Shown here: in pieces, positions 10,418 to 39,130 of the stretch
How the letters are laid out: each line of letters opens with the position of its first letter
Position numbering within the stretch: position 1 is the first letter of the stretch
Source of the DNA: Escherichia coli
Lineage (GTDB): Bacteria > Pseudomonadota > Gammaproteobacteria > Enterobacterales > Enterobacteriaceae
DNA: 64,000 nucleotides
Assembly: GCF_003018255.1 (NCBI RefSeq)
Contig: NZ_CP027440.1
Reading direction: 5' to 3' (one strand)
Translations under genes and position numbers: made by a program
Notes under the pieces: generated by a model
What the model saw: only the letters and a program-made list of their open reading frames with translations
Databases searched by the model: none
Told to the model about the DNA's origin: nothing

Positions 10418-12106
10418 TTATTCCCCCACCATTTCAGTATTCGCCGCACCTGGCGGCACCATCGGGTACACTTTTTCTTCGGCATCAATGCGCACGTGGA
10501 TCAGCGCCGGGCCAGGGCGATTGATGATTTCCTGCAATGCAGCCTGCGGATCGGCTTCGTTATTCAAATCACAGGTTTCGAGGCCGAATCCTGCGGCAAT
10601 CTGCATAAAGTTGATTTTGCCCGGATAGGTAGCGGCAAAAACGCCCTGCTTGTAGAACAGACTCTGTTGCTGATGCACCAGCCCCAGCGCTTCGTTGTTC
10701 ATCAAAATGATTTTAACATCCAGCTGATTTTCACTGGCGGTCGCCATCTCCTGAATATTCATCATCAGGCTGCCGTCGCCGGAGAAGCACAACACTTTGC
10801 GGTCCGGGTTCGCCAGCGCCGCGCCAATCGCCGCAGGCAGGCCAAAGCCCATCGTGCCCAGCCCGCCGGAGGTCAGCCACTGGCGTGGGCGATTGAGCGG
10901 ATAGGCTTGCGCCGTCCACATCTGATGCTGACCCACGTCAGTGGTAATAATCGCGTTGTCATCCACGCAGGCGGCAACGGCATTAATCAGGCCGTAATGG
11001 CTTAATGGATCGCACGCTTTCGGGATTGGACACGGGAATTCACGCTGCAAATCCGCCACCAACTGGTGCCACTCTGCACGCGGTTGCGCTTCCACCAGCG
11101 GGATCAACTGCGCCAGCACGTCATCAACATCCGCCTGAATTGCCACATGCGGTTGCTTGATTTTGCCCAGCTCTGCGCGGTCGATATCGACATGAATAAT
11201 TTTGGCATTCGGACAGAACTGCTCGGTTTTGCCAATCGCCCGGTCATCAAAACGCGCACCGAGTACAATCAGCAGATCCGCCTCCTGCAAAATATAGTTG
11301 GTGCTGCGCACACCGTGCATCCCCAGCATACCCAGCGACAGCGGATGTGCTTTTGGCAACATACCCAGTGCCATTAAAGTCATGGTGGTAGGCAGTTGCG
11401 CTTTCTCCGCCAGTTCACGCACTCGCGCAGGCGCGTTGATCACACCACCACCCAGATAAAGCACCGGGCGTTTGGCGGCGTTAATCATCGCCGCCGCGTC
11501 ACGAATACTTTCTTCGCTAAAGGCGGGTGCGGCGGCTTTTTCTGCCATAGCGGGCTGTGTTTCAATCTCAAAAACTGCCGTTTGCACATCCTTAGGAATG
11601 TCTATCCACACCGGGCCAGGGCGGCCTGATTGCGCAATACGGAAGGCATCGCTCATGACCTGCGGGAGTTCTTCGATATGTCTGACCAGATAGTTGTGTT
11701 TGGTGATGGGGATAGAGATGCCGTAGGTGTCGACTTCCTGGAAGGCGTCGGTGCCGATCATCGAGGCGGGAACCTGACCAGTAATGCAAATCAGCGGGAT
11801 GGAGTCCAGCCGTGCATCGGCAATGGCGGTCACCAGGTTAGTCGCCCCCGGTCCGCTACAGGCCATACAGACCGCCGGTTTACCGTCGGTGCGCGCCATT
11901 CCCTGAGCGATAAACCCCGCGCCCTGTTCATGGCGAGCCAGAATATGGCGGATTTGCGTGCTTTGGCTTAAGGCATCGTAAACAGGCAGGATAGAACCGC
12001 CCGGAATGCCCGTCACAATCTTAATGCCCTGCTGTTCCAGGAAATGAACGATAAATTCTGCGCCGGTAAAGCGCTTACGCGTCGATGTTGTGCCCGAACT
12101 TGCCAT
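10418..12106 (-). CDS. ilvB: Acetolactate synthase I large subunit, 562 aa
   Basis: ORF 10418..12106; thiamine diphosphate enzyme sequence. Confidence 0.95.
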   Translation of the reverse strand: MASSGTTSTRKRFTGAEFIVHFLEQQGIKIVTGIPGGSILPVYDALSQSTQIRHILARHEQGAGFIAQGMARTDGKPAVCMACSGPGATNLVTAIADARLDSIPLICITGQVPASMIGTDAFQEVDTYGISIPITKHNYLVRHIEELPQVMSDAFRIAQSGRPGPVWIDIPKDVQTAVFEIETQPAMAEKAAAPAFSEESIRDAAAMINAAKRPVLYLGGGVINAPARVRELAEKAQLPTTMTLMALGMLPKAHPLSLGMLGMHGVRSTNYILQEADLLIVLGARFDDRAIGKTEQFCPNAKIIHVDIDRAELGKIKQPHVAIQADVDDVLAQLIPLVEAQPRAEWHQLVADLQREFPCPIPKACDPLSHYGLINAVAACVDDNAIITTDVGQHQMWTAQAYPLNRPRQWLTSGGLGTMGFGLPAAIGAALANPDRKVLCFSGDGSLMMNIQEMATASENQLDVKIILMNNEALGLVHQQQSLFYKQGVFAATYPGKINFMQIAAGFGLETCDLNNEADPQAALQEIINRPGPALIHVRIDAEEKVYPMVPPGAANTEMVGE

Positions 12107-12153
12107 GCTCCAGTCCTTTTCTTCTGGGCCGACTTTCCGGGAGGTGCTTAAAC

Positions 12154-12190
12154 GAAAAACCCCGCCCGGTTTGCGCCGGCGGGGTTTTGG
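12154..12190 (-). terminator. ilvB leader attenuator (intrinsic terminator hairpin with U-tract)
   Basis: Minus-strand CCCCGCCGGCGCAAACCGGGCGGGG followed by TTTTTCGTTT, between ivbL and ilvB. Confidence 0.7.
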
Positions 12191-12211
12191 AATCGTGTGT
12201 TGTTCCAGTCC

Positions 12212-12310
12212 CTACGGCGCATTGCCGACGACCACCACCACACGCACGACGACCACTGCGGCGGATGGCGCAGTTGGTAGTAGTTTTGCGTTGAGCATGG
12301 AAGTAGTCAT
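12212..12310 (-). CDS. ivbL: ilvB operon leader peptide, 32 aa (Val/Leu-rich)
   Basis: Minus-strand ORF ATG ACT ACT TCC ATG CTC ... encoding MTTSMLNAKLLPTAPSAAVVVVRVVVVVGNAP with a run of Val codons. Confidence 0.85.
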   Translation of the reverse strand: MTTSMLNAKLLPTAPSAAVVVVRVVVVVGNAP

Positions 12311-12436
12311 TGGGGACCTTGTTGGTTTTGTGTTTAACAATATTTATACAAGCACAGCTTTACAGGGGAGACAATGGAAAATTTTTCAGCAAGGGAAAAT
12401 TGAGGGGTTGATCACGTTTTGTACTGAATTGCAGGT

Positions 12437-12513
12437 AACAAAAAACCCCGCCGGAGCGAGGTTTCGTCAGTCGCCTGCGGCTGGTAACCGCAAAGCACAC
12501 TGTATTATGTCAA
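12437..12513 (-). ncRNA. istR: IstR-1 antitoxin sRNA of the tisB/istR type I toxin-antitoxin locus (approximate ends)
   Basis: Minus strand reads GTTGACATAATACAGTGTGCTTTGCGGTTACCAGCCGCAGGCGACTGACGAAACCTCGCTCCGGCGGGGTTTTTTGTT, ending in an intrinsic terminator; a TATACT -10 lies just upstream. Confidence 0.6.
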
Positions 12514-12619
12514 CACTGAAAGTATACGTGTTCCGCGCAGAACGCGCAATTTCGGCACGAATTTTGACGTATTTAGTGCATAGTTGAGTATCGATCACAG
12601 TTTGCGTTTTGTCCAATAT

Positions 12620-12639
12620 TACTGTTTATTTATACAGTA
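12620..12639. promoter_or_regulatory. LexA box TACTGTTTATTTATACAGTA at the tisAB promoter (TATAAT -10 at 12646-12651)
   Basis: Canonical CTGT-N8-ACAG SOS box read directly from sequence. Confidence 0.8.
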
Positions 12640-12873
12640 AACTTCTATAATATCACTGTACGCAATGTGTTATGCGGGGGCCGCATCGTTACCCGGCGCA
12701 CTAAGTCCTGGCAGAAACGGGTGGTGCCGTCAGCGCCTTAACCCCGCGTGAGCACACTGTGTTATGTCAACAAGCACAACGTTTCTCCTTGAGATACCGC
12801 GTGCACAACAGCTGGCAACAGGCAGCGGAAAGGTACGTCAGCTGGCAGTGCTCCTGAACCACAGGAGACGCGT

Positions 12874-12963
12874 ATGAGCCTGGTGGATATCGCCATTCTT
12901 ATCCTCAAACTCATTGTTGCAGCACTGCAACTGCTTGATGCTGTTCTGAAATACCTGAAGTAA
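12874..12963 (+). CDS. tisB: Type I toxin TisB, 29 aa (SOS-induced membrane peptide)
   Basis: ORF encodes MSLVDIAILILKLIVAALQLLDAVLKYLK, followed by an intrinsic terminator. Confidence 0.85.
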   Translation: MSLVDIAILILKLIVAALQLLDAVLKYLK

Positions 12964-12983
12964 TTCAGATTCAAGTCGCACTA

Positions 12984-13014
12984 AAGGGGAGCGGGTAACC
13001 GCTCCCCTTTTATA
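12984..13014 (+). terminator. Intrinsic terminator after tisB (AAAGGGGAGCGGG-TAAC-CGCTCCCCTTTT)
   Basis: Perfect GC-rich stem followed by a T-run. Confidence 0.8.
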
Positions 13015-13242
13015 TTTAGCGTGTGGGTTGGTGTCGGATGCGATGCTGACGCATCTTATCCGCCCTACCATCCCTCCCGGCAACATTTATTGCCGCTTTT
13101 GTTTACATATTCTGCCGCTAAACAATTCCCCATTCCTGGCGTATATCTGGCTAACATTTATCAATGTGATAGATTCCTCTCCCGCATTTATGGGAATGCG
13201 TAGTGACTTATTCTAATTATTTTTATAAAAGCATCCGTGATA

Positions 13243-14427
13243 ATGAAAAGGCATAGAAACGTCAATTTGTTATTGATGTTGGTATTACTCGTGGCCGTCG
13301 GTCAGATGGCGCAAACCATTTATATTCCAGCCATTGCCGATATGGCGCGCGATCTCAACGTCCGTGAAGGGGCGGTGCAGAGCGTAATGGGCGCTTATCT
13401 GCTGACTTACGGTGTCTCACAGCTGTTTTATGGCCCAATTTCCGACCGTGTGGGTCGCCGACCGGTGATCCTCGTCGGAATGTCCATTTTTATGCTGGCA
13501 ACGCTAGTCGCGGTCACGACCTCCAGTTTGACGGTATTGATTGCCGCCAGCGCGATGCAGGGCATGGGCACCGGCGTTGGCGGCGTAATGGCGCGTACTT
13601 TGCCGCGTGATTTATATGAACGGACACAGTTGCGCCATGCTAACAGCCTGTTAAACATGGGGATTCTTGTCAGTCCGTTGCTCGCACCGCTAATCGGCGG
13701 TCTGCTGGATACGATGTGGAACTGGCGCGCCTGTTATCTCTTTTTGTTGGTTCTTTGTGCCGGTGTGACCTTCAGTATGGCCCGCTGGATGCCGGAAACG
13801 CGTCCGGTCGACGCACCGCGCACGCGCCTGCTTACCAGTTATAAAACGCTTTTCGGTAACGGCGGTTTTAACTGTTATTTGCTGATGCTGATTGGCGGTC
13901 TGGCCGGGATTGCCGCCTTTGAAGCCTGCTCCGGCGTGCTGATGGGCGCGGTGTTAGGGTTGAGCAGTATGACGGTCAGTATTTTGTTTATTCTGCCGAT
14001 TCCGGCAGCGTTTTTTGGCGCATGGTTTGCCGGACGTCCCAATAAACGCTTCTCCACGTTAATGTGGCAGTCGGTTATCTGCTGCCTGCTGGCTGGCTTG
14101 CTGATGTGGATCCCCGACTGGTTTGGCGTGATGAATGTCTGGACGCTGCTCGTTCCCGCCGCGCTGTTCTTTTTCGGTGCCGGGATGCTGTTTCCGCTGG
14201 CGACCAGCGGCGCGATGGAGCCGTTCCCCTTCCTGGCGGGCACGGCTGGCGCGCTGGTCGGCGGTCTGCAAAACATTGGTTCCGGCGTGCTGGCGTCGCT
14301 CTCTGCGATGTTGCCGCAAACCGGTCAGGGCAGCCTGGGGTTGTTGATGACCTTAATGGGATTGTTGATCGTGCTGTGCTGGCTACCGCTGGCAACGCGG
14401 ATGTCGCATCAGGGGCAGCCCGTTTAA
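13243..14427 (+). CDS. emrD: Multidrug efflux MFS transporter EmrD, 394 aa
   Basis: ORF 13237..14427 (track start is GTG); ATG at 13243 gives MKRHRNVNLLLMLVLLVAVGQ... Confidence 0.9.
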   Translation: MKRHRNVNLLLMLVLLVAVGQMAQTIYIPAIADMARDLNVREGAVQSVMGAYLLTYGVSQLFYGPISDRVGRRPVILVGMSIFMLATLVAVTTSSLTVLIAASAMQGMGTGVGGVMARTLPRDLYERTQLRHANSLLNMGILVSPLLAPLIGGLLDTMWNWRACYLFLLVLCAGVTFSMARWMPETRPVDAPRTRLLTSYKTLFGNGGFNCYLLMLIGGLAGIAAFEACSGVLMGAVLGLSSMTVSILFILPIPAAFFGAWFAGRPNKRFSTLMWQSVICCLLAGLLMWIPDWFGVMNVWTLLVPAALFFFGAGMLFPLATSGAMEPFPFLAGTAGALVGGLQNIGSGVLASLSAMLPQTGQGSLGLLMTLMGLLIVLCWLPLATRMSHQGQPV

Positions 14428-14434
14428 GCGCACA

Positions 14435-14932
14435 TCACCGCAGCATCGTCATCAGCTCCATGGGAGAACGATGCTGCTTTATCAGATCACGCATCACCCG
14501 CATATGCGGTGCGGAGTAAGAATAAAACGCCTGATAGCCCGCACATAGCATGCTGTCTGGCGTCTCCTCCCGAGCGTGCGGACACAGCCGATGCCAGTCG
14601 CACGCCTGGCAGTCACGGCGCGATTGCGGGTTTTCGCTGCCACACCATTTTTGTAAGGTGGCGTCAAAAAGCTCAATCGAAATACGACTGATATCTGCCC
14701 GCACCCAACACTCAAACAGGGCAATTAAAAATTTCCCCCACAGCTCTGCTGTCACCGAAGCGGCCGTCAGATCGCCCCGGTCATCAAATTCAAGATAGGG
14801 AATGAGCTGTACGGAGCGGATGCCCCGCTGTTTGAAATTGTGATAAAAATCGGCAGGTTGCAAAGCATCCTTATACTCTACAACCAGTTTATGCCTGTCC
14901 TCTTCAGCATCAATGACCTGACTTCCTGTCAT
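14435..14932 (-). CDS. yidF: Uncharacterised protein YidF, 165 aa
   Basis: ORF 14435..14932; 4-nt overlap with yidG. Confidence 0.8.
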   Translation of the reverse strand: MTGSQVIDAEEDRHKLVVEYKDALQPADFYHNFKQRGIRSVQLIPYLEFDDRGDLTAASVTAELWGKFLIALFECWVRADISRISIELFDATLQKWCGSENPQSRRDCQACDWHRLCPHAREETPDSMLCAGYQAFYSYSAPHMRVMRDLIKQHRSPMELMTMLR

Positions 14933-22411: not shown

Positions 22412-22825
22412 TTAGTTGATTTCGATACGGCGCGGTTTTTTCGCTTCCGGAATCACGCGTTCGAGATCGATATACAGCAAACCATTTACCAGGTTAGCAC
22501 CACGAACATGAATGTTCTCAGCTAACTGGAATTTGCGTTCAAAGTTGCGTTCAGCGATGCCCTGGTACAGATAGGTGCGCTCTTTTTGTTCGTCGGCGTG
22601 AGCACCTTTCACCACCAGCAGATTATCCTGGGCGGTAATTTCCAGTTCGCTCTCAGCAAAACCAGCCACAGCGATAGCAATGCGGTAATGGTTTTCGTCT
22701 ACCAGTTCAACGTTATACGGAGGGTAGCCGCCATTACTCTGGCTCTGGTTGTTTTCTAAGTGGTTAAACAAACGGTCAAATCCAATAGCAGAACGGTAAA
22801 GCGGGGATAAATCAAAGTTACGCAT
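22412..22825 (-). CDS. ibpA: Small heat shock protein IbpA, 137 aa
   Basis: ORF 22412..22831; start at [16 protein letters not shown]... Confidence 0.95.
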
Positions 22826-22917
22826 AATCAATAGCTCCTGAAATCAGCGAGAATCTAAGACCTTCCACAATGGACAGGTCAGGTAGCCAGAACCCCCATC
22901 AGGCGCGTCCTCATCGG
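22826..22917 (-). promoter_or_regulatory. ibpA 5' UTR (ROSE-like RNA thermometer region)
   Basis: About 90-nt leader between the sigma32 promoter and the ibpA start, containing the SD AGGAG; thermometer function is from established knowledge of ibpA. Confidence 0.5.
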
Positions 22918-32986: not shown

Positions 32987-33084
32987 GCCGGATGCGGCGT
33001 TAACGTCTGATCCGGCCTACAAAATCATGCAAATTCAATATATTGCAGGAGTCTCGTAGGCCTGATAAGCGTAGCGCATCAGGC
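32987..33084. repeat. Pair of REP (repetitive extragenic palindrome) elements in opposite orientation (BIME-like)
   Basis: GCCGGATGCGGCGTTAACGTCTGATCCGGCCTAC and the inverted copy GTAGGCCTGATAAGCGTAGCGCATCAGGC. Confidence 0.8.
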
Positions 33085-37726: not shown

Positions 37727-39130
37727 TTACGATGACAATGTTCTGATTAAATTAGAGAAATCTTCTTTGATATCGTGGCTCTCTTCACGCAACTGCTCGA
37801 TCTTCCGGCAGGCATGAAGCACCGTCGTGTGGTCACGACCACCAAACGCATCGCCAATCTCCGGCAGACTGTGGTTAGTCAGCTCTTTCGCCAGCGCCAT
37901 CGCCATCTGGCGCGGACGTGCCACCGAGCGGGATCGACGCTTGGAAAGGAGATCCGCGACTTTGATCTTGTAGTACTCCGCCACCGTCTTCTGAATATTG
38001 TCGATGGTGACCAGTTTTTCCTGCAATGCCAGCAAGTCGCGCAGCGCCTCACGCACGAAGTCGATGGTGATCGCCCGTCCGGTAAAGTTGGCGTTAGCAA
38101 TAACGCGGTTCAGCGCGCCTTCCAGCTCACGTACGTTAGATCGTAGACGCTTGGCGATAAAGAACGCCACTTCGCCCGGCAAACGAATGTCGTTTTCGTC
38201 GGCCTTTTTCATCAGGATCGCCACGCGGGTTTCCAGCTCTGGCGGTTCGATCGCCACAGTCAGCCCCCAGCCGAAGCGGGATTTCAAACGATCCTCAACG
38301 CCGTTGATCTCTTTAGGATAGCGATCCGAGGTGAGAATGATCTGTTGATTACCTTCCAGCAGGGCGTTGAAGGTGTGGAAAAACTCTTCCTGAGATCGTT
38401 CTTTATTAGCAAAAAACTGAATATCGTCGATCAGCAGTGCATCTACGGAACGGTAGTAGCGTTTAAACTCTTCGATCGCGTTGTTTTGCAGGGCTTTAAC
38501 CATGTCCTGAACAAAGCGCTCGGAGTGCATATAAACCACTTTGGCATTCGGCTTGCGCGCCATAATGCCGTTACCCACCGCATGCAGCAGGTGAGTTTTA
38601 CCCAGACCCGTGCCGCCATAAAGGAACAACGGGTTATAGGCACCGCCAGGGTTATCTGCCACCTGGCGAGCCGCCGCGCGCGCCAGTTGGTTAGATTTAC
38701 CTTCAACGAAGTTATCAAACGTGTGTTTGACGTTTACGTTAGAACGATAGGTCGGTTCTGCCGGAGCCGGGACGTTATCCCAACCCGAGCGCGTAGAAGG
38801 CGCAGCACGTTGCGGCTGCGTTTGCGCCACCTGTGCAGGGGCCGCGACGTTGCTCGTCACTGCCGCTTGTGGCGTTTGCGTCACCGGTTTGGTGCCGACT
38901 TCAAAACGCAGCTGTGGGGCATCCGCTCCGCAGAAACTGGTTAGCAGTCCATTGATATTATTAAGGTACTTGTCCCGTACCCAATCGAGGACAAAACGGT
39001 TTGGCGCGTACAGGGCCAGCGTGTTATCGCTCAGTTCCGCCTGCAATGGGCGTATCCACATACTGAATTCTGTGGCTGGTAACTCATCCTGCAATCGGGC
39101 AAGACACTGCTGCCAAAGCGAAAGTGACAC
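37727..39130 (-). CDS. dnaA: Chromosomal replication initiator DnaA, 467 aa, GTG start
   Basis: ORF 37727..39142; start placed at the GTG at 39128-39130 to give [30 protein letters not shown]... Confidence 0.95.

Follow-up and report, generated by a model that had tools for sequence, protein, structure and literature searches.

Locus identity and organization

The intergenic region between ivbL and emrD in the window (the whole 64-kb stretch of Escherichia coli DNA analysed here) carries, at 12430-13014, what is almost certainly this species' tisAB/istR locus, a chromosomal type I toxin-antitoxin system that is expected to act as its K-12 counterpart does. The tisB/istR-1 module found here is already known and is among the best-characterised of the chromosomal type I toxin-antitoxin systems. 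Its identity with the characterised K-12 locus is observed element by element, while its regulation, processing and toxicity are predicted by homology with that locus. A 941-nt region spanning it has 100% identity with E. coli DETEC-S792 and approximately 99% with MG1655, matches 5421 of the 5426 complete E. coli genomes and overlies the RefSeq features ivbL, tisB and ysdE; RefSeq puts tisB at this position in both DETEC-S792 and K-12. The gene order ilvB, ivbL, tisB, ysdE, emrD is that of MG1655, in which tisAB-istR (b4618/b4616) occupies the same ivbL-emrD position and displays the same architecture. Since the alignment shows 99% identity, the MG1655 annotation, which has an experimental basis, can be transferred to the window, which provides the comparison with annotated tisB/istR sequences that an earlier note on this DNA had proposed. 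The features of the locus are as follows.

12440..12466, minus strand: istR intrinsic terminator, a GC-rich hairpin with a U6 tail (terminator scan; fold energy -15.4 kcal/mol)
12440..12512, minus strand: IstR-1 sRNA, 73 nt according to the MG1655 RefSeq annotation, with a 75-nt form starting at 12514; 100% identical to K-12
12440..12579, minus strand: IstR-2, the longer isoform, with a 3' end in common with IstR-1 (MG1655 annotation transferred by alignment); 100% identical to K-12
12495..12515, minus strand: IstR-1 5' antisense segment, complementary to the tisB leader
12521..12549, minus strand: istR-1 promoter, -35 TTGCGC at 12549-12544, 17-bp spacer, -10 TATACT at 12526-12521 (hexamers in PMC11264685, Table 1)
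12587..12615, minus strand: istR-2 promoter, -35 TGGACA at 12615-12610, 17-bp spacer, -10 GATACT at 12592-12587 (promoter scan and PMC11264685, Table 1)
12620..12639, no strand assigned: LexA operator TACTGTTTATTTATACAGTA, spanning -39 to -20 in the tisAB promoter; same sequence as in K-12
12646..12651, plus strand: tisAB -10 hexamer TATAAT, read from the sequence
12658..13014, plus strand: tisAB primary transcript (+1 mRNA), of which 216 nt are leader (isoforms as in PMC7708055 and PMC4147584)
12707..12734, plus strand: 5' pseudoknot of the +42 mRNA, stem 1 12707-12710/12718-12721, stem 2 12711-12715/12730-12734 (PMC7708055)
12752..12772, plus strand: ribosome standby site and IstR-1 target, +95 to +115, an invariant core across genera (mechanism in PMC4147584)
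12764..12877, plus strand: tisA, a 37-codon leader ORF (ORF list), reportedly untranslated (PMC11264685)
12863..12868, plus strand: tisB Shine-Dalgarno sequence AGGAGA, at +206 (PMC11264685, Table 1)
12874..12963, plus strand: tisB CDS, 29 aa, MSLVDIAILILKLIVAALQLLDAVLKYLK, Ser-2 allele, WP_000060506.1 (ORF list, RefSeq)
12983..13014, plus strand: tisAB intrinsic terminator, a 12-bp GC-rich stem (12983-13010; -24.3 kcal/mol) with a GUAA loop and a T-rich tail

The earlier note had described an intact SOS-regulated tisB/istR-1 module between ivbL and emrD, and every element that it listed is present, with Rfam, NCBIfam and RefSeq in agreement. IstR-1, IstR-2, the LexA box, the -10 and -35 hexamers, the 21-nt target, the Shine-Dalgarno sequence, tisA, the length of tisB and the terminator stems are all identical to those of K-12, and the promoter hexamers, Shine-Dalgarno sequence and ORF length agree with those listed as conserved in a survey of over 2,000 E. 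coli strains (PMC11264685). The word intact holds for the ORF, the sRNA, the promoters, the LexA box, the target and the terminators; for translation of the toxin it is unproven, owing to a substitution in the leader (U56A, at 12713) that is discussed below.

Conservation was assessed on a cross-genus set obtained by a pattern scan with one genome per species, which returned 15 enterobacterial istR loci. A tisAB leader was found by nhmmer in 14 of these, and 13 were aligned together with K-12 and the window. The LexA box, the pseudoknot block, the standby site and TisB are kept in Citrobacter, Salmonella, Franconibacter, Siccibacter and Pseudenterobacter. Short ORFs are plentiful in such DNA, with 50 of at least 20 aa overlapping 11500-14800, so that a 29-codon ORF flanked by inverted repeats might be regarded as a set of chance intergenic features and no gene pair at all. 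The probability of this is vanishingly small: the HMM and covariance-model scores exceed their curated thresholds by a wide margin, conservation across genera extends to the ORF, the leader and the sRNA, and an experimental literature exists on the identical K-12 sequences. The profile and covariance matches, together with the cross-genus conservation, refute the chance reading in favour of a genuine tisAB/istR locus.

Predicted SOS control and the tisAB transcript

The operator TACTGTTTATTTATACAGTA departs from the consensus TACTG(TA)5CAGTA at two positions, both of them central, and is the sole site within three mismatches in the 64-kb window, where shuffled sequences lead to an expectation of 0.00. 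Its CTGT...ACAG core is invariant in all 15 enterobacterial sequences of the alignment, the window included. Control of tisAB by LexA within the SOS response is thus predicted here from an operator sequence that is the same as in K-12. The box and the overlapping promoter with its TATAAT hexamer both lie where the earlier note had placed them, and the long leader and strong terminator that it described were likewise recovered.

The transcription start was assigned to the G at 12658 because the mutant positions published in PMC7708055 (CC50/51, G54, C55, U56, G57, C74, A75, G76 and C77), on which the numbering was anchored, fit the sequence only in this register. In this numbering +42 falls at 12699, the Shine-Dalgarno sequence at +206 and the tisB AUG at +217.

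A 35-nt partial match elsewhere was considered as a second copy of the promoter and was rejected, as it is this locus in a different strain, where ISKox3 interrupts it. In that strain, E. coli EcE.CRE.COL (NZ_CP191804, 659-2035), the ISKox3 transposase insertion cuts the locus in or just upstream of the LexA box and removes the istR side, leaving the -10 hexamer, tisB, ysdE and emrD.

Downstream of the tisAB terminator, a REP-like palindrome at 13030-13066 (a sub-threshold naRNA4 hit of 22 bits) lies before ysdE and agrees with the single REP described for this intergenic region (PMC2577331). The gene ysdE itself (13087-13161, minus strand) has ATA in place of a start codon at 13159-13161 in the window and in DETEC-S792, where K-12 and four other strains have ATG; an in-frame TTG lies directly upstream (13164-13162), and RefSeq annotates ysdE in DETEC-S792 despite the ATA. 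Elsewhere in the window, Rfam families above their gathering scores include the ROSE_2 thermoregulator upstream of ibpA (22819-22891, minus strand), the ES036 (CssrF) sRNA (33021-33063, plus strand) and AsdA, an antisense RNA of the dnaA mRNA (38540-38620, plus strand), all of which are expected in this chromosomal region. The sub-threshold hits to Termite-leu, P6, naRNA4, STnc310, RsmY and RRE were set aside as terminator hairpins or the REP element, not members of those families.

The IstR antitoxin and its target

The Rfam istR family (RF01400) matches 12440-12569 on the minus strand over the full model (1-130) and scores 150.1 bits, the gathering threshold being 45. The earlier note had drawn the divergent istR-1 at about 12437..12513, which is within 3 nt of the ends transferred from MG1655, and had credited it with its own -10 hexamer and terminator, the latter formed by the hairpin around 12445-12466. 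The longer IstR-2 is induced in the SOS response and exerts no repression on tisB (PMC4147584; PMC11264685).

Base pairing between the antitoxin and the tisB leader was predicted as the earlier note had suggested. All 21 nucleotides of 12495-12515 pair with 12752-12772, one pair being G:U, to form a helix of -33.5 kcal/mol; no other copy of the target occurs in the window, and 0.00 are expected by chance. The RNase III cut that generates the +106 form falls within this standby and target region (PMC4147584). A whole-transcript RNAduplex comparison of IstR-1 with tisAB was set aside, as the method scores intermolecular pairs only and its background was in consequence very broad (mean -53, sd 7.6, with an outlier at -160).

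Of the 14 other enterobacterial loci, 8 are missing approximately 33 nt within the tisA frame (alignment columns 191-224), and the copy in E. coli E69 is 1 nt shorter. The frame is therefore not kept beyond Escherichia, Salmonella and some Citrobacter, a pattern consistent with an untranslated leader RNA.

The TisB toxin and its second residue

The 29-codon ORF that the earlier note had named tisB passes both NCBIfam TisB equivalog models over its full length (1-29), with 69.9 bits for NF011340 (cutoff 53) and 61.5 bits for TIGR04459 (cutoff 38), and 28 of its 29 residues are those of K-12 TisB. A sequence search of the PDB with TisB returned no match. The single replacement, by which MNLVD... 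becomes MSLVD... through an AAC to AGC change at 12878, is a true N2S variant relative to K-12, as the earlier note had suggested, but it does not stand as a noteworthy one, Ser-2 being the majority allele. At least 3161 of the 4358 tisB-carrying complete E. coli genomes match the window exactly over a 91-mer around codon 2, as against 1001 of 4358 for the K-12 Asn-2 91-mer. Residue 2 is Ser in 9 and Gly in 3 of the 12 other complete TisB sequences across genera, with Asn in K-12 alone.

Shore and Fozo (mSystems 2024) have reported Ser-2 as the consensus, carried by 85% of the loci in 2,212 E. coli assemblies, and have made and tested N2S TisB, the toxicity of which is no lower than that of the K-12 form; among laboratory strains, the K-12 lineage has Asn-2 and the B lineage Ser-2 (PMC11264685). 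The toxin of the consensus allele in that study begins MSLVD..., as does that of the window. The toxicity of Ser-2 TisB has accordingly been demonstrated for the identical peptide, and is predicted for its expression from the leader allele of the window. Ser-2 carries no novelty, being the published, tested and dominant natural allele. As this residue is in the majority in E. coli and the commonest in other enterobacterial genera, K-12 is the odd one. Nearly all work on tisB has taken K-12 as its reference, and with K-12 bearing the minority Asn-2, a variant relative to K-12 is not for that reason an unusual one.

Single-base differences from K-12

Across 12400-13030 the window differs from K-12 by seven single-base changes, two of which are rare (the deletion after 12615 and the substitution at 12713).

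12435: G, A in K-12
after 12615: 1-bp deletion of an A relative to K-12
12713: A, T in K-12; U56A in the pseudoknot
12878: G, A in K-12; Ser-2 for Asn-2
12982: T, C in K-12
12996: T, A in K-12; terminator loop
13024: T, C in K-12

The deletion falls in a run of A between the istR-2 -35 hexamer (TGGACA) and the LexA box and shortens a spacing that is otherwise conserved: among the 15 sequences of the cross-genus alignment only the window is one base shorter at this point, with Citrobacter sp. 18056 two bases longer. It is common to 76 of 4352 genomes by exact 91-mer, many of them from avian pathogenic strains (O78:H4 and similar). The substitution at 12713 is far rarer. By exact 91-mer matching among tisB-carrying complete E. 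coli genomes, on which these allele counts are based, the K-12 form with U56 is present in 4099 of 4356 and the A56 form of the window in 4 of 4356, namely DETEC-S792 (China), 2017.09.02CC (Viet Nam), and JNE23-011 and JNE112863 (both Japan). U56A and the deletion are thus minority states (4 and 76 genomes), and the survey of Shore and Fozo makes no mention of the pseudoknot (PMC11264685). Neither change, nor any other observation, speaks against the identification of the locus; both count against fully wild-type function.

Each of these differences involves a single base, and the deletion occurs within a short A run, as would a sequencing or assembly error at a locus that is really of consensus sequence. 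Such an origin is very improbable for the substitution at 12713 and the deletion after 12615, and is effectively refuted by independent assemblies and a shared haplotype: besides the window, four independent complete assemblies from three countries carry A56, 76 assemblies carry the deletion, and both changes reside on the one haplotype. Both are taken here as genuine alleles.

Haplotype and population context

A 1.2-kb segment (11814-13023) comprising the 3' end of ilvB, ivbL, istR and tisAB is identical in the window, 2017.09.02CC, JNE23-011 and JNE112863, whereas the ilvB and emrD flanks of the latter three strains differ from the window at approximately 2% of sites. Strain E04, which over the first 25 kb is closer to the window than any genome but DETEC-S792, nevertheless has T at 12713. 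An identical segment set between divergent flanks, together with the T of E04, makes the mosaic around the locus consistent with homologous recombination, in which the haplotype or its flanks were apparently exchanged and the haplotype persisted.

Approximately 20% of complete E. coli genomes, including that of Nissle 1917, are without tisB/istR. A published survey of the tisB locus gave 15% with no match and 3% with an interrupted locus (PMC11264685). Weakening or loss of TisB is evidently tolerated in E. coli.

The pseudoknot and the U56A leader allele

Translation of TisB requires a 5' pseudoknot that binds ribosomal protein S1, as has been shown experimentally (PMC7708055). It is an H-type pseudoknot of the +42 mRNA, needed for standby binding of S1 and the 30S subunit, and in mRNA numbering is composed of stem 1 (50-53/61-64) and stem 2 (54-58/73-77), and the stem 2 pairs G54-C77, C55-G76, U56-A75 and G57-C74 were defined by compensatory mutagenesis (PMC7708055). 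The A at 12713 of the window, a T in K-12, corresponds to U56A of the tisB mRNA. Its partner A75 (12732) is unchanged and thus uncompensated, so that the central pair of the 5-bp stem 2, U56-A75, gives way to an A-A mismatch, with eight of the nine pairs of the pseudoknot intact.

U56 is kept in 14 of the 14 comparison sequences (13 enterobacterial loci and K-12). It lies in a block of 27 nt (+50 to +76) that is the same in all of them with the sole exception of UBA3516, in which G54A is paired with C77U; over the alignment, the G54-C77 pair is GC in 11 sequences, GU in three and AU in one. When the published pseudoknot is mapped onto the 15 sequences, 134 of the 135 cells pair, and the lone non-pair is A56-A75 of the window. 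The covariation is not significant, its score being attained in 139 of 500 shuffles, since a block so nearly invariant offers little variation. Structural support for the pseudoknot is therefore experimental, not comparative.

A natural weakening of the toxin arm of the tisB/istR-1 system, in which U56A would reduce standby binding of S1 and the 30S subunit and hence the SOS-induced synthesis of TisB, is a possible reading of this allele, if on balance a somewhat doubtful one. The published single changes that neighbour U56 in stem 2 each lower the toeprints of 30S initiation complexes (8-fold for G54A, 1.5-fold for C55A and to near zero for G57C), and the double mutant U56C/G57C abolishes toxicity, which C74G/A75G rescues (PMC7708055). 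The rarity of the window allele and the constancy of U56 within its near-invariant block point in the same direction, as does an estimated ddG of approximately +5.1 kcal/mol for U56A in a toy helix, which lies between C74G (+3.8, toxic) and G57C (+6.4, non-toxic); this estimate is only a rough guide, as values of this kind do not follow the phenotypes of the published mutants. Single mismatches in this stem are, however, very unequal in effect, as is evident from the 1.5-fold drop of C55A and from C74G, which is still toxic as a single mutant where G57C is not (PMC7708055). The persistence and spread of the allele (China, Viet Nam and Japan) argue against strong deleteriousness, although the loss of toxin may be neutral. 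Approximately one in five E. coli genomes is without the locus altogether. Nested minimum free energy and partition folding of the +42 leader with U56 or A56 (ViennaRNA) assigned the published stem 1 a probability of about 0 and was uninformative on the variant, because pseudoknots cannot be represented by this method. A search of the accessible literature for tisB U56A or for natural variants of the pseudoknot found none. U56A is rare and is the only feature of the locus that is out of the ordinary, and by virtue of it toxin output may fall below that of K-12.

Proposed mechanism and related systems

The characterised system is one in which tisAB is under LexA repression and is switched on by DNA damage, the +1 mRNA is inert and the processed +42 form is active; IstR-1 competes with standby ribosomes and triggers cleavage by RNase III, while TisB depolarises the inner membrane and promotes the formation of persisters (PMC4147584; PMC11264685). 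By homology, LexA bound to the operator at 12620-12639 would hold the tisAB promoter of the window off until DNA damage leads to its cleavage and to transcription from +1 (12658). The primary +1 mRNA would be translationally inert, and its cleavage to the +42 form (12699) would expose the single-stranded standby site (12752-12772) and the 5' pseudoknot (12707-12734). Together these elements would attract ribosomal protein S1 and the 30S subunit and so give them access to the structurally sequestered tisB ribosome-binding site approximately 100 nt downstream. The 29-aa TisB would enter the inner membrane, collapse the proton motive force and favour dormancy, as in persisters. The 21 nt at the 5' end of the constitutive IstR-1 (12440-12512, minus strand) are predicted to pair with the standby site, and this pairing would block standby ribosomes and trigger cleavage by RNase III to the inactive +106 form. 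Within this scheme, U56A (12713) would remove the central pair of stem 2, and toxin output may as a result be lower than in K-12.

The same logic is shared by dinQ/agrB, zor/orz and shoB/ohsC, each of which encodes a small membrane toxin from an inert primary mRNA that is activated by 5' processing, with an sRNA whose pairing site is at a long distance upstream of the ribosome-binding site, as in tisB/istR-1. Like tisAB, dinQ is also under LexA control, and 5' pseudoknots have been predicted for zor and shoB. These systems are without sequence homology to the locus described here and reside at other chromosomal sites.

Implications

The window and four of the 4356 genomes represent a small lineage with a leader allele that breaks the central pair of the pseudoknot at a nucleotide invariant in at least seven enterobacterial genera. 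If the mismatch acts as the neighbouring published mutations do, this allele might conceivably, at rather less than an even chance, constitute a natural hypomorph of a persistence toxin in which transcription, antitoxin and ORF are intact and translation alone is weakened. U56A offers a ready-made natural test of the pseudoknot and standby model at a position that the published mutagenesis covers in a double mutant (U56C/G57C). Should it lower TisB, then the dosage of the toxin would be tunable in nature through standby translation, by a route other than gene loss or IS insertion.
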